A model generated the notes under the pieces. It made no database searches. It saw nothing but the letters and a program-made list of their open reading frames with translations, and was not told where the DNA came from. Source: Eledone cirrhosa (taxonomy: Eukaryota). Taken from it: DNA of 64,000 bases. Position 1 is the first letter of the stretch, and every line of letters begins with the position of its first letter. Position numbers and translations under genes: made by a program. The stretch is from NCBI GenBank assembly GCA_964016885.1, contig OZ024743.1:225246001-225310000 (forward strand), in the 5' to 3' direction. Positions 19,200 through 63,900 of this stretch are shown piece after piece.

Positions 19200-22100
19200 T
19201 GTGTAAAATAACCTTCTCGCTCGTTTAATTATGGTCGAAATTCTAGGATTTTATAAAATAACCTTCCTGATTCTTCACCCGCCCCCTATACATTGTATAC
19301 ACGCCTGCTGGCTCTCTCTCTCAATCCCATCCCCTCTCTCTTCAAATATAAAATAAACTTGTTGCGGGGTACGAAACTCAGAATTTGTCGACCCCTTATT
19401 CTTGGCTACATCGCTCGCTCGCTCTTCTGTGTAATGTAATGTACAAATCCTATTTTTCTAGTCCCTCCATGTTCCCTGGTCCATTCATCTATCTGTATCA
19501 TATTGTCCAGAATCCAATCTTTTCTTTTTCAATGCTATTCGATAATTCTGTCTGATCATTCAAAATAATTTTCTTGTATTTTAAAATCCCATAATTCTTC
19601 TCTTATTACAGTTATATGCTCCTGCGATTATGACCAAAATTTGTGGATTTTATTTTATAACCTTCTCGCTAACTACCCCAGATCCCTCCGCCCCCACTCT
19701 CCACCATTATTATTTGGACCAATCATAATCTAGCAGCCTGTGTTATCACTTCTTAAGTTTAGAGCTGGTTGCCTTTCGATATGATGGATGGACTACGGAA
19801 TTCTGGAGAGTCTGAAAAATCTGGACACTCAGTGACAATGCCAAAGATAAAGACAAATTCACCTCATGCTGCCAAACGAGAATGCAAGGACTCCTCCTCT
19901 TTATTTCGGCCGCGGATGGCTAACATAGCCCCATCTCCCTCACCCCTCCCTGCGCCCCATCCTTCCCACCCACCAAACGCAATCCAAAACTTCAGAGTTG
20001 GCACCATGAATGTAGGCACCTTAAAAGGTCACTCTAACGGGCTTGTAGAGATGCTTGAACGTAAGGAGGTTGATGTTTGCTGTATTCAAAAGACCAGGTG
20101 GAGGGGTGGGTCTGCTAGATTCATTGTGGGTAAAAAACGATGTTATAAGCTTTTCTGGGTGGGAAATGACAATGGGCTGGGTGGAGTAGGATTCATGCTA
20201 GCAGAAAAATGGGTAGATAAGATAATAGATGTAAATAGAGTGAACGACAGATTAATTAAAATAAGACTTGTCCTCAATAGAACTACTGTGACAATAATAT
20301 CTGCATATACACCCGAATCTGGACTGTCTGGCGTTACAAAAGACAGATTCTATGAGTTGTTAATGCTCACTACCTCCCAAATAACCGACAGTGACTATAT
20401 AATTATTGCTGGCGACCTAAATGGACACGTTGGACAACACTGTGACGGCTATGATGGAATCCATGGAGGCTATGGGTTTGGTACTAGAAATTAGGAAGGC
20501 GCCAGAATCCTGGAATTCTGTGACGCAAATAACCTAACTATCTGTAACACAAACTTCAAAAAACGAGACAATCACTTGATTACCTATAGATCAGGGGAAC
20601 ATGCCAGTCAGATACATTATATCCTTACCAGAAGACATGACAGAGTGTCTGTTGTAAACACTAAATCCCTCCCCCAAAAAGAATGCACCTCCCAACATAG
20701 CCTCATAGTTAGCGACCTCATAGTCAGGACGAGACGTACTCGACAACAGAGGAGGACTATCCTTAGGAGAAAAATATGGAAGTTAAAGGACCCCACAGCC
20801 AGTAATAAATTTAAAAGCATATTACTTGATGCTTTTGACAGTAAGGAAGAGCAATTAGTGTTGTACAATATAGAGGAACAGTGGGAATTCCTGAAAGCTA
20901 ACCTGCTCAAGGCGACAGATGAAATCTGTTGCTGGAGCAGACCTATAGGCAGGAGGAGAGTAACTTGGTGGTAGAACAGTAAGATGGAGGAGTCGATCAA
21001 GGCCAAAAGCAGGCTTGGAAAGTATGACGGGATGGGGAAAGTAGAGAAGACTATCAAGTGGCCAGGAGGGAAGCTAGGAGACAAGTGTACTTCGCAAGAA
21101 GGGAAGCAGAGGAAAAAAAGTTCAAGCATGTTCTACAACGAGAGGACCAAAAACGTGAGGTGTTCAGGATTGCTAGACAATGTGTCAAGGAAAACCGTGA
21201 TATTGTCGGGGAGAAGTGTGTCCATAATGATGATGGTGTACTTGCCATCACTGACGCTGATAAGAAGGTAGCTTTGAAGTGTCACTACGAAAGGCTACTA
21301 AATGAGGAGAATAATAGGGGAAAGACAGTCTCCCCCACATCGATCCAATAGAGGGACCAGCAGTGCAAGTTGAAGGTAGTATAATAAGTAAGGCAATCAA
21401 AGATATGAAGATGGGCAAGGCGGCTGGGCCTTCGGAAATAGTTGCTGAAATGCTGAAAGCATCTGGAATGGTGGGACACACTATGGTCACCCGGATAGTA
21501 AACCAAGTCATACAGAATGGGGTCATTCCGAAGGACTGGCGTAGCAGCATCATCATTAACTGCTACAAGGGTAAAGGAGATGCCCTAGATAGGGGAAACT
21601 ATAGAGGCATTAAATTAATTGACCAGGTCATGAAGGGCACAGAAAAAGTAATAGCGCAACTAATCAGAGAGCGAATTGATCTAGATGAAATGCAGTTCGG
21701 GTTTGTGCCCGGTAAAAGTACCACAGACGCTCTTTTCATTGTACGACAACTACAGGAGAAGTACCTAGCTAAAAGTAAACCCCTATACTTAGCTTTCGTT
21801 GACACGGCAAAAGCTTTTGACAGAGTCCCACACCCCATTATCTGGTGTGCTCTCAGAAAAGTAGGTGTTGATGAATGGCTTGTGAGAGCTATACAAGCCA
21901 TGTATAAAGAAACAGTCAGCAAGGTTAGAATTAACAACGAATATAGTGAAGAGTTTAGCGTATAAGTTGGTGTTCATCAGGGCTCCGTCCTTAGCCCCCT
22001 CCTAATTATTATCGGCCTCCAGGCTATAACAGAGGAGTTCAAGACCAGCTGCCCATGGGAACTTCTATAAGCAGATGATCTAACACTCATAGCCGAATCA

Positions 22101-23401
22101 ATGGCTGAACTAGAGAAGAAATTCCAAACATGGAAGCATGGCCTAGAATCAAAAGGCCTAAAAATTAACTTGTCTAAGACTAAAGTTCTAATATGTAGGA
22201 AGGAAAATAGGGCACTGATCCCATCTGGGAAATGGCCATGCTCATTGTGTAGGAAAGGAGTAGGCAGAAACTCCATTTTATGTCCCAAATGCAAAGTATG
22301 GGTGCATAAAAGATGTAGTGGGATCACAGGTAAGCTAACTAAGAAGATAGATTTTATATGTGGCCGGTGCTCTGGTGCAATAAGTAGCAGCAAATGCCCA
22401 CAGAATACTAGCTCATTCCATTGCCCAGATGGTTCTACAGAAATAGTGGACACCTTCCGTTACCTGGGTGACAAAATCAGCAGTGGTAGAGAGTGCTCCG
22501 AAAGTACTGTAGCTAGAGTCAGAACGGGATGGAAAAAGTTCAGAGAGCTTATACCACTATTGGCCGCTAAAGGGTTCTCTCTAAAAATGAAAGGCAGGCT
22601 GTATGATGCCTTCATACAAACAGCGATGTTACATGGCAGTGAGACATGGGCCTTGTGTGCAGAGGATCTACGCAGACTGGAGAGGAACGAAGCTTGCAAT
22701 TCTCCGTTGGATGTGTAATAGTAATATACGCGAACGGCAAAGCATAAATGAACTAAGTGAGAAATTAGGAATAAGAGGGATCAGATGCTGTTTACTCGAG
22801 AGAAGACTACGTTGGTATGGTCATGTGATGCGCATGAAAGACGACAGCTGTACAAAAAGGTGCAGGACGATCAAGATAGACGGTATTACGGAGTAGGCAG
22901 ACCCAGAAAAACCTGGGACGACTTGATAAATTCCAACCTCACACACTTAGATCTCTCCAAGACAATGTCACCGGACCGAGATCTTTGGCGCTATGCAGTA
23001 ATACAGAAGATCCGCCTTGCCTAAGTACAAAGCGAAACCTAGTCAGTAGGTACCTCTTAACTAAATTACACCCCCATCCCACTACCCCTACCCCCACCCA
23101 CACCACCCCTTTGATGTAAAGTTATGTTGGTACCACAACATCCAGTCATAAATAAATGAGGTTGTGTAGGTGTCACGACAAAAAAAACACACAGTCCACT
23201 GTGTAATGTGGCCGTGTAGGTAACACGGTAAAAACCTCCCAGTTCACACTGTAAACGAGGTTGGTGTTAGGAAGGGCATCCAGCCGTAGAAAACCCGCCA
23301 GACAGTCCTGAGCAAGACAACCAATCTTGCCTCAAGTGGGACAATTCCCGTCCAGATCCATACTAGCGTAGAAGACGTTAAATGATGATGATGATGATGA
23401 T
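19200..23401 (+). mobile_element. Near full-length RTE-clade LINE (5' boundary approximate)
   Basis: APE endonuclease, RT, Cys-rich insert, 3' UTR and (GAT)n tail in collinear order. Confidence 0.9.
19769..23024 (+). pseudogene. RTE EN-RT ORF, inactivated by stops and frameshifts
   Basis: GTMNVGTL, GDLNGHVG, SQH (APE); NYRGIKL, QFGF, KAFD, GVHQGSVLSP (RT); catalytic YADD is *ADD (TAA at 22068-22070); CSLC..CPKC..H..C..CGRC Zn-finger-like insert. Confidence 0.9.
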
Positions 23402-24218: not shown

Positions 24219-24420
24219 TTAGTTATGTGATAAACAACATAAGATAATTAATTCATTTACGAGTGGTTTCTTGAAGACAGATATTTATATTATAGTCGTC
24301 AGAAAGAATAACATAGATTCCATGTTATTCTTTCTGACGACTGAAGACATATAAATATCTGTCTTCAAGAAACCACTGGTAAATGAATTAATTATCTCAT
24401 GTTGTTTATTACATAACTAA
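24219..24420. repeat. Fold-back pLTR fragment
   Basis: TTAGTTATGTGATAAACAACAT... / ...ATGTTGTTTATTACATAACTAA arms; inner hairpin 24295-24341. Confidence 0.75.
24327..24388 (+). ncRNA. Type I hammerhead
   Basis: ATTCTTT-CTGACGA-cTGAAGACA..TGTCTTCAa-GAAA-CCACTGG-TA-AATGAAT. Confidence 0.65.
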
Positions 24421-24529
24421 AAAGCTCTGTAGCCTACATAGAACACTCTCTTTTCCTTTACCTTTTCTACGGAAATACTTCATATATATAAATATATATA
24501 TACTATACATACATTTATGTATACATCGT

Positions 24530-24840
24530 TATTTCAGAGCATCAATACTAATACCTTATTTTTGCTGGACCGGAAATCGCTCTGTGTAATCAGCTCCTGA
24601 TTATTACTGGAATTCTATAAGAATCCAGCAACTATAATTTCTGGCAAAGGCAGGTGAGTGCATGGCTTTGATAAACACCAAGCAGCGAGAAACAGCTGTC
24701 AGCCACTCTCCCAGCCTTTGCCGAAAATATAAGTAAGTGACATAGTCACTACTTTAAAACTGATAGCAAATGGTCTTCTAAATGTTTTTAATTAAACATA
24801 TATTCATGTATTCATCACTATTTCAGAGCACCAATACTAA
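24530..24840 (+). repeat. Diverged ~290-bp retrozyme-like unit related to the 310-bp repeat at 55431
   Basis: Terminal redundancy ATTTCAGAGCA.CAATACTAAT at 24531 and 24820; shares GGACCGG.AA.CGCTCT, TTCTATAAG and GGTCTTC.AAATGTTT...AAACATA with the 310-bp unit. Confidence 0.7.
24663..24705 (+). ncRNA. Hammerhead with U3-A8 variant core
   Basis: TGGCT-TTGATAA-..-GAAAC-AGCT-GTC-AGCCA; outer helix GGCAAAGGC/GCCTTTGCC; helix II degenerate. Confidence 0.6.
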
Positions 24841-25264
24841 TATATATATATAAATAATATATCATACATCGTAGGACACCTTTGATCATGAATGATCATG
24901 GTTTTACACGTAGAAAGTTTCCCTACAAGACACAAGCCTGTTTATGGAAGACCAGCAGTCGTCCATGCATGCCAGTTTCCCCTCTCCACATCACTGATGT
25001 TGTTCAAATGAAAGGCAATGACCAATACAGCTTGGCATCAGTGATATCACAACTCATTTTTACAGCTGGATGAGATGCAGTTTGGATTTGTGCTGGCAAA
25101 AAGCACCACTGAGGTCCACGGAGTGAAAACTTTAATTCTATTTTTAGGCCGAGCCGGCTGACAGCTCCATATGCAAATGGGGCTAATCAGCCCATATACA
25201 TATGTGTCAAAACTATATATTTTTGCCTATATTATTTTCCAGCAGAGAACAGGGTAGGGGAAGC

Positions 25265-40188: not shown

Positions 40189-42322
40189 GTGCAATTCGAG
40201 GAGGAGTTAACTAACATTATAAAAAATCTTAAATTCAAGAGAAACCCTTACAGAGGACAAGAGCACCTTGTAAATCTCAAGAACAAAATTTCAAACCTAA
40301 ATTCCTCAAAAAATGTTTTAGTCCACTCTCACAAAACCAATAATTTATGTGGTATTTCCAAGGATAACTATAACAACCTTATCCTAAAGGAACTTAGGAA
40401 AAAATATCGTAAAACCAACCATGATAATTTAGAATCCATAAATTTTGAAGTTTCTGAGATTATGTCAAAACTTGGCATCGGAAAAAAGACCGAACCATTC
40501 CTCCCAAGAACTCCGAGGATAAATTTCAAGGATCACAAAAACAATTTTCGTACTGAACTACCTGTTAGATTAATCGCGCCCTCTAAATCAGATTTGGGGG
40601 TTGTTAGCAAAGCCATCTTGGATAGAATTATCCCACAGGTTCGTTCTAATTGCTCTTCTTTGAACTTAAATTTATGGTTTGGTACTTCTGAAGTGATTGG
40701 CTGGTTCAACAAATTGAATAATAAAAACAAACAAAAATTTATTCAATTTGATATTGCCAGCTACTATTCTTCTATTTCGCCCTCACTTCTCAACAATGCT
40801 CTATCTTTCGCTTACAAATATTCAGACATCACCACAGATGAACTTCACATCATTCTCACCGCACGTAAAACCATCCTAGAGTTCAACAATGAATATTGGA
40901 CCAGAGCTGATACCTCTAACAACTTTGACATCACAATGGGAGCATCCGATTCATCACAATTGACAGATTTAATTGGTATCTTTATATTGAACTTTTTGAG
41001 TCGGAAAATTCCTCAACTTCGTTAACCTTAATATTATTAAGAACAATATACGTAATCTCTTTAACCAACATAACTTAAAAATTGAATTTGATAACAGCAT
41101 CAAACTAGCTAATTTCTTGGATGTATCTCTTAATCTTGACACTGACCTATATTACCCTTACCATAAAAACAATGAGAACCTAAATTATGTTAATTTTAAA
41201 TCTAACCACCCCACTAATAGTAAGAATGCTATAGTTAGTAATATTGGAAAAAGAATATCTAACCTATCTTCTAATAAAAACATCTTTGATGCTAACGCCA
41301 ATTACTATAATAACGCGCTTTCTAAAGCCGGTTATCCTGATAAAATCAAATATAGTAAAGAAACAAATTCTAGAAGATCTTACAGTAGAATAATTAATCA
41401 TGATCATTCCAATGACTTTAATAAAAGACCTAGATACAAAAACATAATCTGGTATAATGCTCCTTTCTCCATCTCTATTACTAATAATAATATTCCTAAA
41501 TTATTCTTTAGTGCCTTAAATAAATGCTTCCCTCCCTCACATATCTATAGTAAAATATTTAACAAACACACTATAAAATGTTCCTATTCGACCTCCTCCA
41601 ACATCTCCAACATTATCTCTAAACACAACAATAAAATACTAAATATTAAATCTCTTCCTTCCAACATTGAATATCATAATAATAATAATAGTACTCCCGA
41701 CGTCATTGTAAACTCTAAGCTAATTTCTGCAAACCCAAATACAACGTCAAACGCAACTTTGTTAAATGTTCTTAATTCCATTCTAAATCAAGAAACTAGT
41801 ATTCCTATCGTAAATAACTTCTCAAATCTAATTCCTTCTATAGATAACACTAGGTTACTTGTTAATAACTCTGCTAATCTCTCTAATCGCAATTGCAATT
41901 GCCCTGTTAAAAATAAATGTCCTCTCAACAACCATTGTCTTGAAAAAAACTTAATCTACGAATGTAAAGTTATAACTGACACCAATTCCTTCACCTATTT
42001 TGGCTCCACTTCCACCTCCTTTAAAGCTCGTCTTTATAATCATCATTCGTCTTTTAAATACCAACTTAAAAGAACCAACACGGTACTCTCAGAACTCATA
42101 TGGTCCTTGAAAGACAAAAATATTAACTATAACATCTCTTGGAAAAAGGTTTCTTCTGCTTCTCCATACTTGAACAGTTCTCTATCCAAGACATGCAATC
42201 TCTGTTTAAGTGAAAAATTTACCATTATATCTAATTTAGATTCTATAATAAATAGACGCACTGACTTGTTTTCTCTCTGCTTGCATAAATTCCACAGAAC
42301 ATTCCATAAAGTATACAGCTAA
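40189..42322 (+). pseudogene. PLE RT-GIY-YIG ORF broken by deletion of the YRDD motif
   Basis: ORFs 40189..41025 and 41117..42322; comparison with 57960-58030 shows 53 bp missing at ~41021. Confidence 0.85.
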
Positions 42323-43283
42323 TATCTAATACTTTATCAATTTAAAATCCTTTTCTCAAAGGCACATATATATATATACATATATATTTCTTTAAAAATA
42401 TACCCATCTTTCTACCTTATTTCAAAGTTATTTATTATACATTATATAATACTAGTTACTCATTCTATATCACTCCTATTTATCATTTCCCTTTATTTCT
42501 CTTTTCCTTTTCTTTTCTTTTCTTTCTTTCTTTTACTTTTAATTTCTAATCCCTAATCTGTACCTTTTCCGCCTTGATACTTCTCAATTATCATTGTGCC
42601 TAACGTAGAAACAATTATTACACAGCACAATATATTCTTACTTTATATCACCTCGAAAAAATCCTTCGTAAACAAACATTTTTTTGACGTTAGATTATTC
42701 ATCCTCAATTCATTATTTTTTTCTTCCTTTCATGCTCATCTAACTTATTCATCCAATCTTCTAGTTCTTTCACAATATATCCTTACTTACATTACTATTG
42801 CTATATTTTTATATTTTTTAAATAATACACATCAACAATTTCTTTACATCGCACATATTATTAATCCATTAAATATTATTCTTAATACCTATCACAATTT
42901 CTTTTCATTGCACATATTATTAAACCCTTCAATATACAAACCTTAACTTAACATTATTTTTCTCTTCGTTAATTTTCAAATTCTTTTAATTTATATATTA
43001 TCTTCCAACGGTTTTTCAACCTCTCTATGTAAAACAATATATTTTTTCTCAGTTATAAAAGCTATCTCTCTCTCGCTCTATCACCCATCTCTCCTCCTAT
43101 CTCATTATACTCCTCCCCCTCCACTTTTTACTCTCATCTCCTCCTCTTTTTCATCCTTTCCACCCCCCACCCCCTCAACATTTTTTTCCCCAATATCACA
43201 CATCAATCTAAAACTACTTTTCATATGTTGATTTAAAACTGCACTATTCACAAGTGTGTTTTAACCTTCATATCATATCTCCC

Positions 43284-45428: not shown

Positions 45429-48400
45429 ACTCATACACACACATTTACATGCGCACATATGTATTTTTATACTCACATACAAACACACAAACATACATAC
45501 ACACTTACATACACATACATACATCCACGCTTACAAATACAAATAATTATTGGGGGGGGGATTAAAATTATTAGTGGGAAATAGTAAATATATAGGTTTC
45601 AAGGAACATAGAATATTAATCTGCAGTTAAATCATTATATGTGTTTACATAGTACACACACATATACATGCGCACATATTATTTTTATACACATACAAAC
45701 ACACAAACATACATACACACATACATACACATCCATACATCCACGCTTACAAATACAAACAATGATTGGGGGGGGGGGGATTAAAATTATTAGTGGGAAA
45801 TAGTAAATATATAGGTTTCAAGGAACATAGAATATTAATCTGCAGTTAAATCATTATATGTGTTTACATAGTTGTATCAGTTTTAGGAAATGGTATTTGT
45901 AAGAAAGAAGGCTAAATTATGTATTTTAATATAAGTAGAATATTAATTATAGGTTAACTAAAATAAAAATAGTTAATATATTAATTTCTAAGGTGTATAC
46001 TACTTAGGTTTATAATATTTAAAGCGGAATTTTGAAGTTAAACAGTAGTAGAGTATTAATTATAGCATAACTAAATTAAAAATAATTACATATATTAACA
46101 TGATGGTATCAATTTTAGGAAATGAATTTTGTAATAGGGAAAGCCAAATTAAGTATTTCATCGGTAGTAGAATATTAATTATAGGTTAACTAAATTAAAA
46201 ATCATATATTAATTTCTATAGTATATGTTAATTAGGTTTATAATAATTAAAGCAAAATTTTGTATTTTATCTATAGTAGAATTTTAATTATAGGTTAACT
46301 AAATTAAAATTAATCTATATATTAATTTGTAAAGTGTATATTAATTAGGTATATATTTAAAAGTTTTTCTCAGTTTATGATTACACGATATTCTGCAATC
46401 CATCTGTATTAGAATTTTAATTATAAGCTAACTAAATTAAAATTATAGGTTAACTAAATTAAAATTAATTTATATATTAATTTCTAAATTGTATATTAAT
46501 TAGGTTTATAATATTAAAAAGTATTTCTCCGTTATTAATTACACGATATTTTGTTGTATTTCATCTGTAAAAGAATTTTAATAATAGGTTAAATAAACTA
46601 AAATTAATCTATATATTAATTTCCAAAGTATATATTAATTATGTTAATAATATTTAAATGTTTTTCACAGTTTATGATTATACGATATTTTTTAATTTCA
46701 TCTGTAGTAGAATTTTAATTAAATTAAAATTATAGGTTAACTACATTAAAATTAATTTATATATTAATTTCTAAAATATATATTATTAATTAGGTTTATA
46801 ATATTTAAATGTTTTTCTCAGTTTATGATTACACGATATAATTAATTCCTGTCGCTTATTTAATAGGATATCCTTAGATTTCATTATTTCAAATAGTTCT
46901 TGGGAACACAATCTACATTCATTTCTATTATTTTGATAAGGGGTGGCTCTTTTGAGCACACTCCAGGTCATATCATATTCTATATTCTTATTTCTATAAC
47001 TATTAATTTTTTCTGCTAGAGATGTTGTATTAGCCAGTGCGGCATTTTTAAAACTATGTTTGTGGGTATTAAACCTTACCTTAAAATTGTTAGAAGTAGC
47101 TCCTATATATGAGCAAATAGAATCCTTAGTTTTAACTTTACATTTATAAACTATGTTGTTAACAAGACAATTTCCTTTTAATGGGCAGTTTGCCTTGTTT
47201 CTACAGTTACAACCTTTCGTTAATTCTGTATTTGAGGAGATATGGTTAATTTGATGTATTGGTGGTATACTTATGGTTTTTTTACATTTATATGCATTAT
47301 AGGCACTTATATTTTGTTTTATGTTTTTGGTTGTTGAGTATGAGAATTTAACTGTTGATCTATTTAAGATTTGATGGTATTTGTGGTTTGGCGGGAAGTT
47401 TTTCTCTAGGATATTAAACAATTTTTTAGGTATATTATCCTTAATTTGTAAATTAAATGGAGCATTATACCAAGTAACTCGTCTATTACGGTTTCTATGT
47501 TGTTTATTGTTTTTATAGGATGCATCCTGATGTTTACTAGGAGGATTAATGTTAATGACCTCACCACGCACATTTTTAGTTAGATTTATTGATTTAGGTG
47601 TTTTAGCTTGTTTATTAGGAGTTTTATTATTAACATTTATTAGAGTTGTATGATGAGTAGTTTTTTGAGAGTTACTATACTTTATATTAGAGGAGTTAGA
47701 GAAATTTGGTTTTATGTTGGTATTTTGGGGTATAGTGTGAGTGGCATTTAGGTGTGTACTTTTCATTTGGTGTTTGTTGGTAATATTAGGTTGTATGTTT
47801 ATAGTGTTATTAGTAGAAGGTATATACTCCAATCTATTTTTGTGGCCACTTCTATCTAGAGCTTCGTTATAGAAGGTCGCATTTTTATCAAATACATCTT
47901 GGTTAGACGAAAGGTTAGAAATTCTAAGTGATATATTATATGCAAGGTTTTTAAGGATAGATTTAGGGTGATTAGATTGTGAGTGTATGTAGTGTAAGTT
48001 TTGGTTGGGTTTATGGTAAGGTTAGTAGATACCCGTAGACAAGTCTAAAGTTATATCTAGGAAATTAACTACTTTACTTGTGTTTTCAAAAGTAATATCA
48101 AGACTATAATAGTCTTTAAGGAAAGTTCTAATAAGCTTTTTGTTTTTTTCTATTCCTGAGAGGCTAAGGTTGTTGGAAAGAAGAAGACAGTCATCACGAT
48201 ATAAACCACCTTTAAGGTGGGGAAAGGAAGCATTTATGTTAAAAAGAAGAAAGAGGCCCACAAGATCAGTAATTTGGGCAGAATCGCTTGAACCCATAGT
48301 AATATCAAATAGATTACTATATGTGTTTCTGGTCCAGTATTCATTCTGAAATTCAATAAGTGTTAGTCTAGCATGTGTAATAATATTAATGTCATCCAAA

Positions 48401-48534
48401 GTTAAGTTAGATCTATTTTTAGCAAATATCCATATATTTATAATAATAATATATATGTATGTGTGTGTGTATGTATGTGTATATGTGTGTGTATATATAT
48501 GTATATATATGTATATATGTATGTGTGTGTATGC

Positions 48535-48606
<72 letters not shown>

Positions 48607-48852
48607 TGTCTGTAGATTGTAGACATACAGATACATTAGCCCTAAATTTTTATATTTACATACACCATTTCAACATACGTATACATATGAACATACACTT
48701 TTGTACACATCTGTGAACGGATTTACATACATATATACACACACCTAACTGTATTTTCTTGATGGATTTTTATGTATTTCATTGGTCTATTTAAAATCTG
48801 TTCCCAAACAGACCTGTAATTTTGAATTGTTGTTATTATCAATAAATATGCA

Positions 48853-52394: not shown

Positions 52395-52904
52395 TACAAG
52401 CTATGTATAATGAAACAGTCAGTAAGGTTAGAATTAACAATGAATATTGTGAAGAATTTATATATATATGTATATATGGTGGCTGCCAACTCGTTTTCGA
52501 GTACGGCCACTACTTTATATCCATGTAGGAGAACCCCCACCGATGCGCTGAACGAGTCTGACTTTTTAGTCCAGCCAGCGACTTGAAAACTCTGGTACAA
52601 ACACTACACTTGTGACAATTATTGACACATAGTGCTGGGTGCATGGTACCATGTAACGACAAGTGCAGAGAGATCTCCAGATATAAAGCAATGCCTGTGC
52701 CGTGAAGCTTTTATAGTGAGCAAAGGCACTGCACAAAGCCAGTCCCATTCTCTTAACCAAGATGATATTTACCAAAAAAGAACAAGTCAACATCATTGGA
52801 TACCATCAGGGTTGCAGGTGTTATATATATGCATATATATGTATATATATATGCATATATATATATGCATATATATGTATATATATATATGCATATATAT
52901 ATAT

Positions 52905-54079
52905 GTGACAGTAATATCTGCATACGCGCCCCATCCGGACTGCCTGGCGTAATAAAAGACAGATTCTATGAGACACTGATGCTCACTACCTCCCAAATAA
53001 CCGACAGTGACTATATAATTATTGCTGGCTACCTAAATGGCCACGTTGGACAACATTGTGACGGCTATGACGGAATCCACGGAGGCTATGGGTTTGGTAC
53101 TAGAAACGAGGAAGGCTTCAGAATCCTGGAATTCTGTGATGCAAACAACCTAACTATCTGTAACACTAACTTCAAAAAACGAGACAATCACTTGATCACC
53201 TACAGATCAGGTGAACATACCAGCCAGGTAGATTATATCCTTACCAGAAGACGTGACAGAGTGTCTGTTGTAAACACGAAATCCCTCCCCCATGAAGAAT
53301 GCACCTCCCAACATAGACTGATAATTAGCGACCTCATAGTCAGGACGAGACGTACTAGACAGCAGAAGAGGACTATCCTCAGGAGAAAAATATGGAAGCT
53401 AAAGGATCCCACAGCCAGAAATAAATTTCAAAGCATATTACTTGATGCTTTCGAAAGTAAGGAAGAGCAATTAGAGTCGTACAAGGTAGAGGAACAGTGG
53501 GAATTCCTGAAAGCAAACCTGCTGATGGCGGCAGACGAACTCTGTGGCTAGAGCAGGCCTGTAGGCAGGAGGAGAGTAACATGGTGGTGGAACAGTAAGG
53601 TGGAGGGGTCAATCAAGGCCAAAAAGCAGGCTTGGAAAGCATGGCGGGATGGGGGAAGTAGAGAAGACTATCAAGTGGCCAGGAGGAAAGCTAGGAGACA
53701 AGTGTACTTCGCAAGAAGGGAAGCAGAGGAAAGAAAGTTCAAGCATGTTCTACAACGCGAGGACCAAAAATGTGAGGTGTTCAGGAATGCTAGGCAATGT
53801 TTCAAGGAAAACCGTGATATTGTCGGGGAGAAGTGTGTACTTAACGATGATGGCGTACTTGCCATCACTGACGCTGATAAGAAGGTAGCTTGGAAGTGTC
53901 ACTACGAAAGGCTACTAAATGAGGAGAATAAATGGGAGAAAGACAGTCTCCCCCACATCGACCCAATAGAGGGACCAGCAGTGTTAGTCGAAGGTAGTAT
54001 AATAAGTAAGGCAATCAAAGATATGAAGACGGGTAAGACGGCTGGGCCTTCGGAAATAGTTGCTGAGATGCTGAAAGCA
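52905..54079 (+). mobile_element. Internal RTE LINE fragment (APE C-half and linker)
   Basis: Collinear with 20288-21460 (ISAYAP, GYLNGHVG, QVDYIL, SQHR, GPSEIVAEMLK); small RT piece at 52393-52460. Confidence 0.9.
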
Positions 54080-55430
54080 TTGTTATTTTAAAAAAAATAT
54101 GATTGTATCATTAAATGCCTCATTATATGTTCTATCAGTAGTTAAATTTTCATTACCCTAACTTTATTAAAAATACCTAAAACCGCATTTTTCCTAATGT
54201 GTTGTAAACTTTTGCGGGGCACTGTATATATATATATATGCATATATATATATGCATATATATATATATGCATATATAGATATATATATATGCATATATA
54301 TATATGCATATATATATATATAAATATATATATATATATGCATATAGATATATATATGCATATATATAAATATATATATATAATATATAAGAACAAAAGA
54401 TGGTTAAAAGTGATCCATGTATTTTATTATGCGCATTTCAAAAACAAATATCATCATGCAATAATATTTGTGTTTTCATCAGATAAAACAGGAAGACATG
54501 ATATGAAGGTTAAAAAACACTTGTGGATAGTGCAGTTTTAAATCAACATATGAAAAGTAGTTTTAGATTGATGTGTGATATTGGGAAAAATATTTATTTT
54601 GAGGGGGGGGGGGTGAAAAAGAGGAGGAGATGAGAGTAAAAAGTGGAGAGGGAGGAGTATAATGAGGAAGGATGAGATAGGAGGAGAGATGGGTGATAGA
54701 GAGAGAGAGATTGCTTTTATAACTGAGAAAGATATATTGTTTTACATAGAGAGGTTGAAAACCGTTGGAAGATAATGTATAAATTAAAAGAATTTGAAAA
54801 TTAACTAAGAGAAAAATAATGTAAAGTTAAGGTTTGTATATTGAGGGGTTTAATAATATGTGCGATGAAAAGAAAATGTTAATATGTATTAAGAATAATA
54901 TTTAAGGGTTTAATAACATGTGCGATGAAAAGAAAATGTTAATATGTATTAAGAATGATATTAAGGGTTTAATAATATGTACGATGGAAAGAAAATGTTG
55001 ATATGTATTATTAAAAAGAATAACAGGTAATTTAAGTAAGGATATATTGTGAGATGAGCATGAATGAGTTAGATGAAAGGGAGAAAAAAATAATGAATTG
55101 AGGATGAATAATCTAACTTCAAAAAAATGTTTGTTTACAAAGGATTTTTACAAGGTGATATAAAGTAAGAATGTATTGTATTATGTAATAATTGATTCTA
55201 TGTTAGGCAACAGTGAGAAAAGGTACAGATTAGGGGTTAGACATTAAAAGAAAAAGAGAAGAAAGGAAAGTGATAAATAGGAGCGATATATAGAATGAGT
55301 AACAAGTATTATAGAATGTATAATAACCTTTGAAATAAGGTAGAAAGATGGGTATATTTTTAAAGAAGTGTATATATATATATGTGCCTTTGAGAAAAAG
55401 ATTCTAAATTGATAAAGAATATTAGCTGTA

Positions 55431-56670
55431 TTCACATATATATCGCTATTTCAGAGCATTTATTCCAATTTCTAATTTCTGCCGGACCGGCAACCGCTCT
55501 TTCAAACCAGTTCCTGTACACAGCTAAGTATTCTATAAGTCTCTAGCTGTGTCATTCTCGATAAAAGCACTGGATATGTAGTCCTGATGATTTCTAACAA
55601 GAATGAAACGCGTAGATTACTTCCCTTGCTTTTATCGAGAATCTAATTGTAATACGTGACGTATTCTATTCTATAGCGATTAGGTCTTCAAAATGTTTAT
55701 TATAAACATACAGAATATTTTCGAATATTCTATGTCTATATTCACATATATATCGCTATTTCAGAGCATTTATTCCAATTTCTAATTTCTGCCGGACCGG
55801 CAACCGCTCTTTCAAACCAGTTCCTGTACACAGCTAAGTATTCTATAAGTCTCTAGCTGTGTCATTCTCGATAAAAGCACTGGATATGTAGTCCTGATGA
55901 TTTCTAACAAGAATGAAACGCGTAGATTACTTCCCTTGCTTTTATCGAGAATCTAATTGTAATACGTGACGTATTCTATTCTATAGCGATTAGGTCTTCA
56001 AAATGTTTATTATAAACATACAGAATATTTTCGAATATTCTATGTCTATATTCACATATATATCGCTATTTCAGAGCATTTATTCCAATTTCTAATTTCT
56101 GCCGGACCGGCAACCGCTCTTTCAAACCAGTTCCTGTACACAGCTAAGTATTCTATAAGTCTCTAGCTGTGTCATTCTCGATAAAAGCACTGGATATGTA
56201 GTCCTGATGATTTCTAACAAGAATGAAACGCGTAGATTACTTCCCTTGCTTTTATCGAGAATCTAATTGTAATACGTGACGTATTCTATTCTATAGCGAT
56301 TAGGTCTTCAAAATGTTTATTATAAACATACAGAATATTTTCGAATATTCTATGTCTATATTCACATATATATCGCTATTTCAGAGCATTTATTCCAATT
56401 TCTAATTTCTGCCGGACCGGCAACCGCTCTTTCAAACCAGTTCCTGTACACAGCTAAGTATTCTATAAGTCTCTAGCTGTGTCATTCTCGATAAAAGCAC
56501 TGGATATGTAGTCCTGATGATTTCTAACAAGAATGAAACGCGTAGATTACTTCCCTTGCTTTTATCGAGAATCTAATTGTAATACGTGACGTATTCTATT
56601 CTATAGCGATTAGGTCTTCAAAATGTTTATTATAAACATACAGAATATTTTCGAATATTCTATGTCTATA
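55431..56670 (+). repeat. 4 tandem copies of a 310-bp hammerhead-containing unit (non-LTR retrozyme)
   Basis: TTCACATATATATCGC at 55431, 55741, 56051, 56361; TSD ATATTAGCTGTAT at 55419-55431 and 56668-56680. Confidence 0.9.
55578..55620 (+). ncRNA. Minimal type I hammerhead (repeated at 55888, 56198, 56508)
   Basis: GTAGTC-CTGATGA-tTTCT-aaca-AGAAt-GAAA-CGCG-TA-GATTAC; 16-bp outer helix 55554-55569 / 55627-55642. Confidence 0.85.
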
Positions 56671-58543
56671 TTAGCTGTATACTTTGTGGAATGTTTTGTG
56701 GAATTTATGCAAGCAGATAGAAAACAAGTCAGTGCGTCTATTTATTATAGAATCTAAATTAGATATAATGGTAAATTTTTCATTTAGACAGAGATTGCAA
56801 ATTTTGGATAGAGAACTGTTCAAGTATGGAGACGCAGCAGAAACCTTCTTCCAAAAGATGCTATATTTAATATTTTTTGTATTTCAAGGACCATATGAGC
56901 TCTTAGAGAGCCGTGTTGGTTCTTTTAAGTTTGTATTTAAAAGACGAATGATGGTTATAAAGACGAGCTTTAAAAGAGGTGGAAGTGGAGCCAAAATAGG
57001 TGAAGGAATTGGTGTCAGTTATAACTTTACATTCGTAAATTAAGTTTTTATCAAGACAATGGTTGTTGAGAGGACATTTATTTTTAACAGGGCAATTGCA
57101 ATTGTGATTAGAGAGATTATTAACGAGTGACCTAGTGTTATCTATAGAAGGAATTGGATTGGAGAAGTTATTTGCGATAGGAATAATAGTTTCTTGATTT
57201 AGAATGGGATTAAGAACATTTAGCGAAGTTGTGTTTGACGTTGTATTTGGGTTTGCAGAAATTAGCCTAGGGTTTACAATGACGTCGGGAGTACTATTAC
57301 TATTATTATGATATTCAGTGTTGGAAGGAAGAGATTTAGTATTTAGTATTTTATTGTTGTGTTTAGAGATAATGTTGGAAATGTTGGAGGATGTAGAATA
57401 GGAACATTTTATAGTGTGTTTGTTAAATATTTTACTATAGATATGTGAGGGAGGGAAGCATTTATTTAAGGCACTAAAGAATAATTTAGGAATATTGTTA
57501 TTAATAGAGATGGAGAAAGGAGCATTATACCAGATTATGTTTTTGTATCTAGGTCTTTTATTAAAGTTATTGGAATGATCATGATTAATTATTCTACTGT
57601 AAGATCTTCTAGAATTTGTTTCTTTACTATATTTGATTTTATCAGGATAGCCGGCTTTAGAAAGCGCGTTATTATAGTAATTGGCGTTAGCATCAAAGAT
57701 GTTTTTATTAGAAGATAGGTTAGATATTCTTTTTCCAATATTACTAACTATAGCATTCTTGATATTAGTAGGATGGTTAGATTTAAAGTAAACATAATTT
57801 AGGTTCTCATTGTTTTTATGGTAAGGGTAATATAGGCCAGTGTCAAGATTAAGAGATACATCCAAGAAATTAGCTAGTTTGATGCTGTTATCAACTTCAA
57901 TTTTTAGGTTATGTTGGTTAAAGAGATTACGTATATTGTTCTTAATAATATTAAGGTTAACTATGTTGCAATTTAAGATAGTAAAGAGTCCATCGTCACG
58001 ATAAATTCCACCGCGAAGTTGAGGAATTTTTTCTCTTCGTTAATTTTCAAATTCTTTTAATTTATACATAATCTTCCAACGGTTTTCAACCTCTCTATGT
58101 AAAACAATATATCTTTATCAGTTATAAAAGCTATCTCTCTCTCTCTATCACCCATCTCTCCTCCTATCTCATCCTTTCTCATTATACTCCTCCCTCTCCA
58201 CTTTTTACTCTCATCTCCTCCTCTTTTTCACCCCCCCTCAAATTAAATATTTTTCCCAATATCACACATCAATCTAAAACTACTTTTCATATGTTGATTT
58301 AAAACTGCACTATCGACAAGTGTTTTTTAACCTTCATATCATGTCTTCCTGTTTTATCGCATGAAAACACAAATATTATTGCATGATGATATTTGTTTTT
58401 GAAATGCGCATAATAAAATACATGGAACTCTTTTAACCATCTTTTGTTCTTATATATTATGTATACTCCAGTCCTACAAACTGTAGAGTGCTTCTTATCC
58501 TATATCTGCATTGCTTTATTGTACTACAATAAAACTCACCTCC

Positions 58544-58589
<46 letters not shown>

Positions 58590-59278: not shown

Positions 59279-59323
<45 letters not shown>

Positions 59324-59327
59324 TGAG

Positions 59328-59374
59328 ATTCTACAGGACTAGAACTGTTTCATTCTTTAGAAATCATCAGGAAT
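59328..59374 (-). ncRNA. Type I hammerhead in fold-back pLTR (59318-59500)
   Basis: Minus strand ATTC-CTGATGA-tTTCT-aa-AGAAt-GAAA-CAG..CTG-TA-GAAT; the plus arm restarts at TGATGA (59375). Confidence 0.7.
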
Positions 59375-59547
59375 TGATGATTTCTAAAGAATGAAACAGT
59401 TCTAGTCCTGTAGAATCTCATCTATATTAAAACTTTTATGCTCTGCAATGTATTGAGTACCTTACTTACTGTGGTTACCTCCGATTCAACCCGGAATAAC
59501 GTATATATATATATATATATATATATGGATATATATATATATATATA

Positions 59548-60923: not shown

Positions 60924-63900
60924 ATGCTTTGGGAGGGTCATGTTGCCAATAAGAAACACACGCACCAGTTGCTTTCACTTCAATTTATTATAAATTCAAT
61001 TTAAAAATTTAGGAATTCATAAATTTTCAGTTGGTTGGTTGGTTCCACAACCAGACGGTTGTTCATATATTGTCAAAGTTCTTTCGTCACACATTTTGTG
61101 ACCTCTTCAGTAACTGGGAATTCTTTTCTTTTCTTTGTTTTTGTGCCTCTCCTTTGTTCTGTCCTACGGCATCTTGTTTTTGTGTGTGTTGTGTGCTTAG
61201 TTGGCGCATGTGTTACATCCGGGTGTATGTGTGTGTTTATATTTGTTTATTTATTTGTTTATTTACATGTTACTGGTTGGTTGTTTGTTCTATGTGTGTG
61301 TGTGTTTTCATTTTGTCCTTAATTGTAAGTTGTAATGTTGCTATTCCATTCATGTTTTCTATTTAATTTTGGTTGGAGTTCATTTATGTTTATTGCCTCT
61401 GTGATTTGTCTAAACATTGCGTCTTTTCTGTGTGCAGATTCTATTTTTATTTCTATGTTCTCTAATTTACCCTTATGTTCTATTTTAGCATGTTAGTGGA
61501 GTACAGATGATTCTTTACTATCTTGAGGCTCTCGCCAGTGTTCATTTATCCTTTCTCCTATACTACGAGCTGTCTCACCTATGTACACTATATTCTTATC
61601 TCTACATTGTCCTTCAGTACATCTTATGCTATATACTACATTTCTAGTTTTACAGTTAATATGGGGGCTTAGTTTACAGAATATACATTTCTTATCCATA
61701 CAGGGAGGTCTTTGAAAAGGGTATGTATTGCTAATAAGTGTTTTTATGGAGGTACCTGGTCTTTCTACTATCTTAATATTGAGTTTATGTTTATCTAGGG
61801 CCCTTCTAAATTTGTAAGGTAATTCACCTCTATGGCTTGTATTGATGAACATTACACTCTGGTATTTATTGCTATCATACCATGAGTTTATTCTATTAAC
61901 CTTATTCCTAGTTCTTTCTATTCTATTCCAAAATTTGCTCCTATACAAGGGGCAGGTCCCATTTGTATCATTATTTACCATTTTTTCCCATTTGGTTCTG
62001 GCTCCTCTATATACTCTGATTTTATCACTCTGATTGTAACCAGAGGACTGCATACGGTGGATGAAGTGTTGTATGTGTATCTCTAGTTCTTTGGGGTTGC
62101 ACATGCAGGACACGTTTCTCATCACCCATACCAAATCTGCAATCAGTATGTTGATTTTGGTGTGGTCCAAAACAGCTGAGTTTCGGTGGATCAGATATTT
62201 GGTAGTCATGGGTTTGGCATAATGGGAATGGAGGATTTGTTTTTTGTTATTAATGGTATCTAACCAGAGCTCTGTATGTAGTACAGGTAATCAATAGTTG
62301 GGGTGTTTGTTTGGGTAGTCTATAGTAACTCTAATGCTCTGGTGGATGGAGTTAGCTATTTGCTGGATGCTTTCCATTGTGTTTTTCTCTAATTCCTGAC
62401 TGTTCTCTAGTGGGGGTGTTTTTACTACGATGTTTATATCATCAACGTAGCGGGAGTACATTATCAGGGTTAAGAGGTTGCTGTCATCTAATTGTTCTTT
62501 AAGTTTAACTTTAAGTCTATTGTCCCACCATACCATGAATAGGTTAGCTATGTCACCTGCAATGCTAACACCAATGGCTGCTCCCTCCTCTTGGGCATGT
62601 TTTTCCATTAAATTTGAACATATGTTCCTTAAGGGTTAATTTTATACTAGCCCCACTGCATATGCAATCATTTTATTTAGTTCATCGTGGTTTTCGGGGG
62701 TCCGTATGGCTCTGGTCCACCCGTTCCATCTATCTGTGTGGGTTTTATTGGCCATTGAGGTAATGGTTGGTGGTCTGCCTCTTGCTGGTCTTGTAGGGCA
62801 CAGGCTGCTAAGGTCATATGTATCTAGATAATCATTACTATAGGTAAGTTTAAGTAGGAGTCCCAGCTCACTGGTATCAATCCCACGGATCTCAACATTG
62901 CTCTCACTGATCATTTCTACGCATTTCTCAACAGCAAAATCCACGTCAATAGATGGATATAGGGACACAACATCCATACTGCGTATTATGCAGTTTGTTA
63001 GGTCCCTAGATCGGTTACTTTCGTTGATTCTGCTGAGGAGGTCCTCCGTGCTATCACATATATCTGGGGACATTTCAATGATGGGGCGTATGATCAGGGA
63101 GAAGAAGTAGGAAAGTCTGTAGTTACTAGCAATGTTAGCTCCACAGACTGGCCGAGTTGGTGGTCCTGTGACAGGGTCACTGCTCATTTTATGGTCTTTT
63201 TGAAGCTTATACAACGCTGGCACGTCATTGTTTCAGGCCTGGAAGTTGTTGGCAGTCCTTTTGTTGGGCTGCATTATGTTTGTCCATATCATCTTATGGG
63301 CATTGAGGGTTTTTTCCCTATCCTCATGCTCTTGTGGTGTTACTTCTCTTGTGTTAGTGATGTGGGGTTGCATTGCCGGGATGTAGTTTGGCAGACTGTC
63401 AACCGACATTCTGCCAGACTTGTCTGTTGGAAAGCATGCAATCTCTCCATTATGTGAGCGCTGCATGAGCTTATGCAAGCCATTTGCAGATTTTTCTCCC
63501 AGTTGCTGGGCCTCCATTCTATTTTGGATTCTATTTTTATTTCCATGTTCTCTAATCTACCCCTGTGTTCTATCTTAGCATGTTGGTAGAGCACAGATGA
63601 TTCTTTATTATCTTGGAGGTCTCGCCAGTGTTCATTTATTCGTTCCCCTATACTACGAGCTGTCTCACCTATGTACACTATATTTTTGTTTCTACATTGT
63701 CCTTCTGTACATCTTATGCTATACACTACATTTCTAGTTTTACAGTTAATATGGGGGCTTATCATCTGTGCTCTACCAACATGCTAAGATAGAACACAGG
63801 GGTAGATTAGAGAACATAGAAATAAAAATAGAATCCACACACAGAAAAGACGCAATGTTTAGGCAAATTACAGAGGCAGTAAGCATAAAAGAATTAAAAC

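Follow-up and report, generated by a model that had tools for sequence, protein, structure and literature searches.

The window analysed here (the whole 64,000-nucleotide stretch of the Eledone cirrhosa assembly GCA_964016885.1, contig OZ024743.1, positions 225,246,001 to 225,310,000) carries a 5'-truncated Penelope-like element (PLE) and, at the end of its reading frame, an array of short tandem repeats with predicted hammerhead ribozymes. This array is a very recent insertion of a non-LTR retrozyme, one that lacks long terminal repeats (Table 1). Tandem Repeats Finder places a tandem array with a period of 310, 4.0 copies and 100% matches at 55429-56672, and alignment of the units indicates that all four 310-bp units are letter-for-letter identical. 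By base counts the unit has 34% G+C, and no open reading frame (ORF) of at least 150 amino acids runs over the array. The 13-bp target duplication ATATTAGCTGTAT is found at 55419 and 56668, on both sides of the array, and takes in the last codons (Tyr-Ser) and the stop codon of the host frame, which is read from the minus strand; another copy of the host family (family A) contains its reverse complement at 42313-42325, which represents the empty site. The four identical repeats, the duplication across the stop codon, the empty site and the orientation of the hammerheads opposite to the host PLE (cores on the plus strand, host ORF on the minus strand) had all been part of the original prediction, and all were recovered. 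Since junction bases also match the unit (5 bases, ATATT, at the right junction and 3, TAT, at the left), the inserted part amounts to 1,236-1,244 bp. The filled left junction has 1 match genome-wide whereas the target-site motif has 1,453; the array was therefore inserted here and does not belong to the host family itself. The prediction of a very recent retrozyme insertion is supported by this locus, and the data on the family are far stronger than the single locus.

Other copies of the retrozyme were located with sequence patterns. The exact hammerhead 37-mer has 4,494 matches in the genome and a degenerate version has 17,812, which at 8.7 units per insertion in the sample suggests a family of about 2,000 insertions. 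The sample was composed of 10 regions from the exact-hammerhead list and 20 further regions, the first 60 of 93 not-yet-fetched places listed for a pattern of the long end (1,109 matches), and 30 three-kb loci of a pattern of the short end (98 matches). From the tally, duplicate loci (L100, L120), hits below 88% identity or shorter than 32 bases, and 20 of the 30 three-kb loci (those with one end outside the locus or already contained in a longer locus) were omitted, and the rearranged insertion L071 was collapsed. Unit positions are numbered from the cleavage site, and ends were assigned to a short site (S, unit 120-149) or a long site (L, unit 158-175). Among the 97 insertions tallied, 83 consist of two head-to-head arrays with one S and one L end each, and no S+S or L+L pair was found; 14 are one-armed, 2 of them at assembly gaps. 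As most sampled loci were picked by an end pattern, the two-armed share is biased; the first 17 arrays listed by hammerhead alone comprised 13 two-armed and 3 one-armed insertions and 1 at a gap. The S site lies at unit 123-139 and, in most insertions, the L site lies at 163-167, which leaves a tail of 26-42 nt, and arrays range from 1 to 49 units. A survey of the duplications and targets of other copies shows that targets are mostly (TA)n and that duplications measure 12-15 bp where the target is interrupted (L032, L034, L064, L093, L113 and L129, as well as L251 and L257 by eye), most other loci being uninformative for duplication length. On the S side, the duplication is in register with unit 124-143. 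The S site is AT-alternating, with 5-10 bases common to target and template and with mismatches resolved either way, and at L junctions 1-3 bases are common to both.

Because of its 13-bp duplication and its 3' end at 123-128, the window copy fits these family rules. It is an ordinary copy, and as its target is not a microsatellite there is no ambiguity in reading off its duplication and S register. The near-whole number of units was considered as a special feature and rejected, since only 1 of 12 readable one-armed 5' ends falls in 123-139 (chance 0.49). The two fixed ends, the tail on one end and the inverted 5'-truncated arm make mobilisation by a Penelope-type enzyme very likely, and the predicted integration by Penelope-like machinery is thereby supported across the family. 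For the window copy, our preferred reading, to which we assign a probability of roughly two in three, is a young one-armed retrozyme insertion, likely made by a Hydra-type Penelope enzyme that reverse-transcribed a self-cleaved and circularised 310-nt RNA for four rounds.

Hammerhead cores start at 55584, 55894, 56204 and 56514 on the plus strand and are intact in every unit. The helices are a helix I of 6 bp, a helix II of 4 bp whose base carries a U-U pair, and a palindromic helix III; the 16-bp outer helix has a z score of -4.65, with 0 of 200 shuffles equally good. In Rfam, the array hammerhead has no match at the gathering score and only a weak match to HH9 (19 bits versus 52, E 0.05). 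The minimal hammerheads of PLEs are described as having a helix II of 7-8 bp, a helix I of 4-5 bp and no helix III (PMC4209133), and by the definitions given in that paper and in PMC7229834 the array hammerhead is the canonical metazoan form and not the PLE minimal form. The predicted 'minimal type I' hammerhead is thus retained as to type, palindromic helix III and outer helix, whereas its helix lengths do not agree with 'minimal' in the PLE sense. Folding of two copies is predicted at -68.9 kcal/mol compared with 2 x -31.4 for monomers, about 6 better, and pairs the helix III palindromes, which supports, as a prediction, a hammerhead of the dimer type. The predicted fold of the circle has a z score of -5.0, but the antisense strand gives -4.5. 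In the hammerhead domain, all 11 types of array-wide variants keep the core and helices compared with 7 of 28 sporadic types (Fisher p 2e-5), counts that refer to types and not to independent events; the tolerated array-wide variants affect a free core position, loops, or G-U or restored pairs, and a one-base insertion and one substitution in helix I that had been clipped by BLAST were judged compatible by eye. This pattern of variation indicates that the hammerhead fold is under selection and matters for spreading, and suits a cycle with (predicted) cleavage. In older retrozyme families related to this one, the 8-bp tetraloop hairpin next to the S site persists with substitutions in its paired bases (10 rows, few of them independent).

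With respect to the RNA template, 64 central junctions between arms were mapped, and their 128 5' ends are spread round the unit, with 0 at position 1 and one at position 2. Six arms had seemed to end at the cleavage site, but exact mapping removed this accumulation of 5' ends, which came from clipping of BLAST alignments. As the 5' ends ignore the cleavage site, the template must have been either a circle or an uncut multimer. In 41 of the 64 central joins there is an overlap of 0-5 bases, 3 joins go via the outer helix and 20 contain extra bases, and arm lengths fit exponentials with means of 1.2 and 1.6 kb (Kolmogorov-Smirnov p 0.62 and 0.46, n 62). The main alternative to a circle is the same two-site integration by a Penelope-type enzyme, in which long master arrays would be transcribed into a linear multimer that serves as template uncleaved or after partial cleavage. 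However, 31 haplotypes, 23 of them seen once and each the same in both arms, occur among the 77 insertions of at least 3 units, and private variants are fixed through the whole array at 13 loci, a clonality that needs a bottleneck of one unit. Similarly, two variants located in helices, A20G and A276G, have become fixed on about six backgrounds each, which needs repeated one-unit bottlenecks, whether they arose by editing or by recombination; the A-to-G bias among fixed compared with sporadic changes (8:3 versus 9:14, p 0.07) is only suggestive. Over the 217 unit-lengths in which arms overlap, 80 arm-specific changes were found versus in-register sharing at 3 loci, whereas about 19-37 in-register events would be expected if the density of changes in donors was between half and the whole of that in the sample (0.17 per unit), an estimate that assumes donors as mutated as the present copies. 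In addition, an extra internal inversion occurs only in L071, so arms rarely read through a donor junction (in at most one insertion).

Several observations weigh against a monomeric circle copied by a Penelope enzyme. The arm-specific changes may be later mutations or errors of the reverse transcriptase (RT), which would weaken the expected count. In L118 the haplotype switches at the same unit in both arms and in L098 one variant is present in the same unit of both arms, so that a multi-unit template is needed there; these two loci suggest that both arms were copied from the same RNA, and sharing in register is also what a linear multimer would leave. L089 is a mosaic in one arm, and L265 alternates a variant. 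The longest arms (L102+L248 with about 46 units, L080+L246 with about 28, L036 with about 20) contain variants that recur at intervals, with a 7-unit period in L036; long arrays that could serve as masters therefore exist, and the repeated variants mean that local expansion also occurs, unless they reflect larger circles. For the enzyme PAc, unprocessed linear RNA was reported as the main substrate in vitro, with a dispensable hammerhead (PMC11167929), and in a 2026 preprint (10.64898/2026.07.22.740005), 8 of 9 Xenopus retrozyme dimers are given as showing no cleavage. Furthermore, no PLE with the body sequence of the unit was found among about 60 PLE loci and 55 related-repeat loci, a search that covered families A, B and C and 30 GIY-YIG loci. 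The frequency of multi-unit templates is known from the sample only. On balance, the monomer circle was probably the main template, in agreement with the rolling-circle template of the original prediction, for which the clonal arrays, the haplotypes shared by both arms and the scattered 5' ends speak, and a linear multimer without a circle is an unlikely alternative.

In the case of the helper, it might be proposed that family A is the specific helper and that the retrozyme was aimed antisense at its stop codon, a proposal that is compatible with the preferred reading. Family A is abundant, has near-identical open frames of about 800 amino acids, uses (TA)n as its target and shares the two-end layout of the retrozyme, and PAc cut its own junction of ORF and pseudo-long terminal repeat (pLTR) in vitro (PMC11167929). 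Against this, the similarity between the unit and the family A pLTR does not exceed that of shuffles (scores 19-20, shuffle means 21-22), and the same holds for the unit and the 3' ends of families B and C. The antisense position, to which the original prediction had given weight, is uninformative because most insertions (83 of 97) hold both orientations, and a special meaning of the stop codon as a site is not supported, as targets are mostly (TA)n and one site is filled among the 1,453. Family D of the Hydra clade instead shares 26 of 28 hammerhead bases with the unit (score 45, 0 of 200 shuffles as good); its pLTR precedes a Hydra-type frame in L197, and its S site shares TCTATATT with the unit. 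By eye, L lies a few bases before a small hairpin, enclosed by a helix formed with the tail, in the unit, in the older retrozymes and in families A and D. Tail length was rejected as a helper marker, as it varies among Hydra families (about 90 in A and about 67 in D, by eye). An element of the Hydra clade, as a class, is thus likely the best candidate for the helper, and family A in particular a doubtful one.

It has also been discussed in the 2026 preprint that retrozymes undergo local satellite amplification, and in the present case Penelope-type insertions of 1-2 units might have been expanded in place by unequal exchange. The variants that recur at intervals in the longest arms (L102, L080, L036 and L037) are in line with such an expansion; however, in young insertions the two arms are both multimers whose lengths are exponentially distributed and whose 5' ends fall at random, no duplicated variants are seen in arrays of 10-24 units, and arms copied from a cut linear monomer could not exceed 165 bases, which makes this origin very improbable. 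An assembly artefact is hardly credible: although the units are identical and no array-spanning read was found among the raw-data pieces listed, the junction is clean and unique, the duplication matches the family size and the S register, the unit is present in raw-data contigs and 96 other insertions obey the same rules, so that at most the copy number of the window array could still be off. In three runs labelled as other organisms (X4, X5 and X9), one closed contig of 340 bases contains the unit; among the runs listed with the unit, none is recorded as RNA. In X5 the host PLE is present too, at about the depth ratio seen in the best of the runs with the unit, and X4 and X9 are too shallow to tell; the occurrence of the unit in these runs was discarded as evidence of horizontal transfer, as the host PLE in X5 fits trace DNA or a close relative.

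According to the preferred reading, with a 310-nt circle and a Hydra-type enzyme, tandem transcripts would be cut by dimeric hammerheads and the monomers closed by a host ligase, as in known retrozymes and in keeping with the predicted fold. In A+T-rich DNA the endonuclease would cut the two strands at points offset by about 12-15 bases, a stagger taken from the duplications, and the 3' ends so made would serve as primers within the RNA, one starting at S, aided by pairing with unit 124-139, and the other at L, at about 165. This priming step is modelled on PMC11167929, whereas the end positions are observed in this genome. The enzyme would go on copying around the circle until it stopped at a random point, and usually two cDNAs would be joined head to head by microhomology. 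In the window copy only the S arm is present, and the other target end would have been joined to the cDNA through a 3-base microhomology, which would leave the duplication and a near-whole number of units. More tentatively, and with slightly less than even confidence, the family may be seen as a genomic record of animal rolling-circle reverse transcription, in which a Penelope dimer of the Hydra clade would act at both ends of one staggered cut, using two fixed sites on one 310-nt circle (sometimes A-to-I edited), and in which only circles with a working dimeric hammerhead would propagate. If true, it would show directly how ribozyme circles enter genomes and would offer a short circular template for multi-copy, site-primed insertion.

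The two-ended layout of the host element is the same as that of the retrozyme family, and Hydra family D shows it likewise. Sister copies of family A (L152, L157) have open 821-residue frames with DKT, RW, CxCX5C, CxxC and CxH motifs, and by these motifs, together with the hammerhead, the (TA)n targets and an ORF below 3 kb, family A is assigned to the Hydra clade as characterised in PMC8557442; it has RWT in place of RWK. In L152 (reverse strand 1-330), an A+T-rich 3' region of the family B type, noted together with 45430-46786 of the window, runs directly into the 5' end of a family A frame, an arrangement that is a chimeric or nested Hydra element. The family D hammerhead has 10,296 matches, with many copies joined just 5' of the core through helix I, and at 59317-59501 of the window a tiny head-to-head element in (TA)n is made of two truncated family D pLTR ends. 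Between the two arms of two retrozyme insertions there are foreign pieces, a 272-bp G+C-rich one in L037 (2999-3270), for which no Rfam match was found, and a 54-bp one in L129 (5872-5925), which were probably captured by template switching. Older related retrozymes with units of about 290-320 bp and 5,575 motif matches were seen at 24230-24845 of the window and in L076, L104, L127, L142, L162 and L216-L245. They share unit 59-235 and the S and L registers, and their hammerhead regions differ, which suggests that ribozyme cassettes have been exchanged. Hammerhead-like cores belonging to other repeat families also lie at 24302 (-), 24334 (+), 32699 (+) and 4933 (-), and other mobile elements occupy 19763-22718, 52766-54091, 61493-63232 and 46786-48669; they comprise a long interspersed nuclear element with endonuclease, RT and PHD finger, present in two copies that are 92% alike, the family C element, which is a GIY-YIG PLE, and the family B element, a second Hydra-type PLE.

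Table 1. Features of the retrozyme array and its host element, in window coordinates; unit positions are numbered from the cleavage site.
Feature	Position	Strand	Remarks
Retrozyme array	55429..56672	+	4.0 identical 310-bp units; 3 complete cleavage-to-cleavage monomers; one-armed
Array ends			5' end at unit position 125-128, 3' end at 123-128
Left copy of 13-bp duplication	55419..55431	+	Last 3 bases are microhomology with unit (5' junction); junction unique genome-wide
Right copy of 13-bp duplication	56668..56680	+	First 5 bases are unit positions 124-128, the short (S) start site of the family
Type I hammerhead, unit 1 (predicted)	55578..55620	+	Repeated at +310, +620, +930
Hammerhead parts	helix I 55578-83/55615-20; core 55584-90 and 55605-08; palindromic helix III 55608-13		Predicted cut after 55614
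Outer helix, 16 bp, enclosing hammerhead	55554..55642	+	55554-69 pairs with 55627-42
Internal-unit 'tail' between the two family end sites	55738..55779	+	Unit 124-165; S 123-139, L 163-167
Tetraloop hairpin, 8 bp	56642..56661	+	Immediately 5' of S site
Empty target site in second family A copy	42313..42325	-	Sequence match
Host: 5'-truncated Hydra-clade PLE, family A	54383..58027	-	In-frame stop and frameshift near 3' end
Host's own hammerhead	54482		Within family A element; host ends in (TA)n at short site
Inverted pLTR of host	58028..58546	+	Ends at long site about 90 bases past short site

In the features that can be read from its sequence (units, low G+C, absence of an LTR, PBS or PPT, hammerhead, dispersal and duplications), the element agrees with the metazoan non-LTR retrozymes, above all with the HHR_Amex2 repeats of the axolotl (Cervera and de la Pena 2020, PMC7229834). 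As described there, these retrozymes are likewise non-coding, A+T-rich tandem units of 150-450 bp, each with one type I hammerhead in which helix II has a U-U pair at its base and helix III is palindromic, and they have duplications of more than 4 bp, thousands of copies and coexisting PLEs. The available part of that paper describes no fixed ends, head-to-head arms or tail, and treats the helper and the circular template as hypotheses; expression, cleavage and circles are shown there, whereas for the present family they are proposed. Insertions of endonuclease-positive (EN+) PLEs are similar in having an inverted 5'-truncated arm and a one-ended tail of 30-40 bp (Craig et al. 2021, PMC8557442; Arkhipova et al. 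2013, PMC3846280) and two internal start sites with both strands cut and extended (Frangieh et al. 2024, PMC11167929), and, as far as these sources go, in the (TA)n targets of the Hydra clade and in PLE duplications of 8-10 bp. In contrast to EN+ PLEs, the retrozyme family has no ORF, and both arms are multimers of one 310-bp unit. Its S start pairs 5-10 bases of target and template, whereas initiation by PAc in vitro is reported as not homologous to the cut DNA, and the hammerhead fold, which is under selection in the retrozyme family, is reported as dispensable for PAc in vitro (both PMC11167929). Vertebrate retrozymes have been interpreted as non-autonomous derivatives of PLEs (Li, Clavereau and Pollet 2026, 10.64898/2026.07.22.740005), a similar link between retrozymes and PLEs through the pLTR; in the portion of that preprint considered here the evidence is co-occurrence and pLTR phylogeny, whereas the present link comes from junction anatomy, and no pLTR with homology to the body of the unit was found among the loci compared.

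No published description of two-armed, tailed retrozyme insertions was listed in literature searches, and supplements (PMC7229834 Fig. S9, that of the 2026 preprint) may bear on this point. The route by which animal retrozymes enter DNA is open in this literature, which, in the parts available, proposes a circular template and a Penelope helper and shows neither. As the present family is young, steps are legible at its junctions: two start sites, a stagger, pairing, random stops, clonal arrays and selection on the fold. It thus provides good genomic evidence on the open mechanism of a known kind of element, and, since it specifies the template (310 nt), the precise start sites and, as candidates, Hydra enzymes whose frames are open, the in vitro assay described in PMC11167929 is directly applicable.

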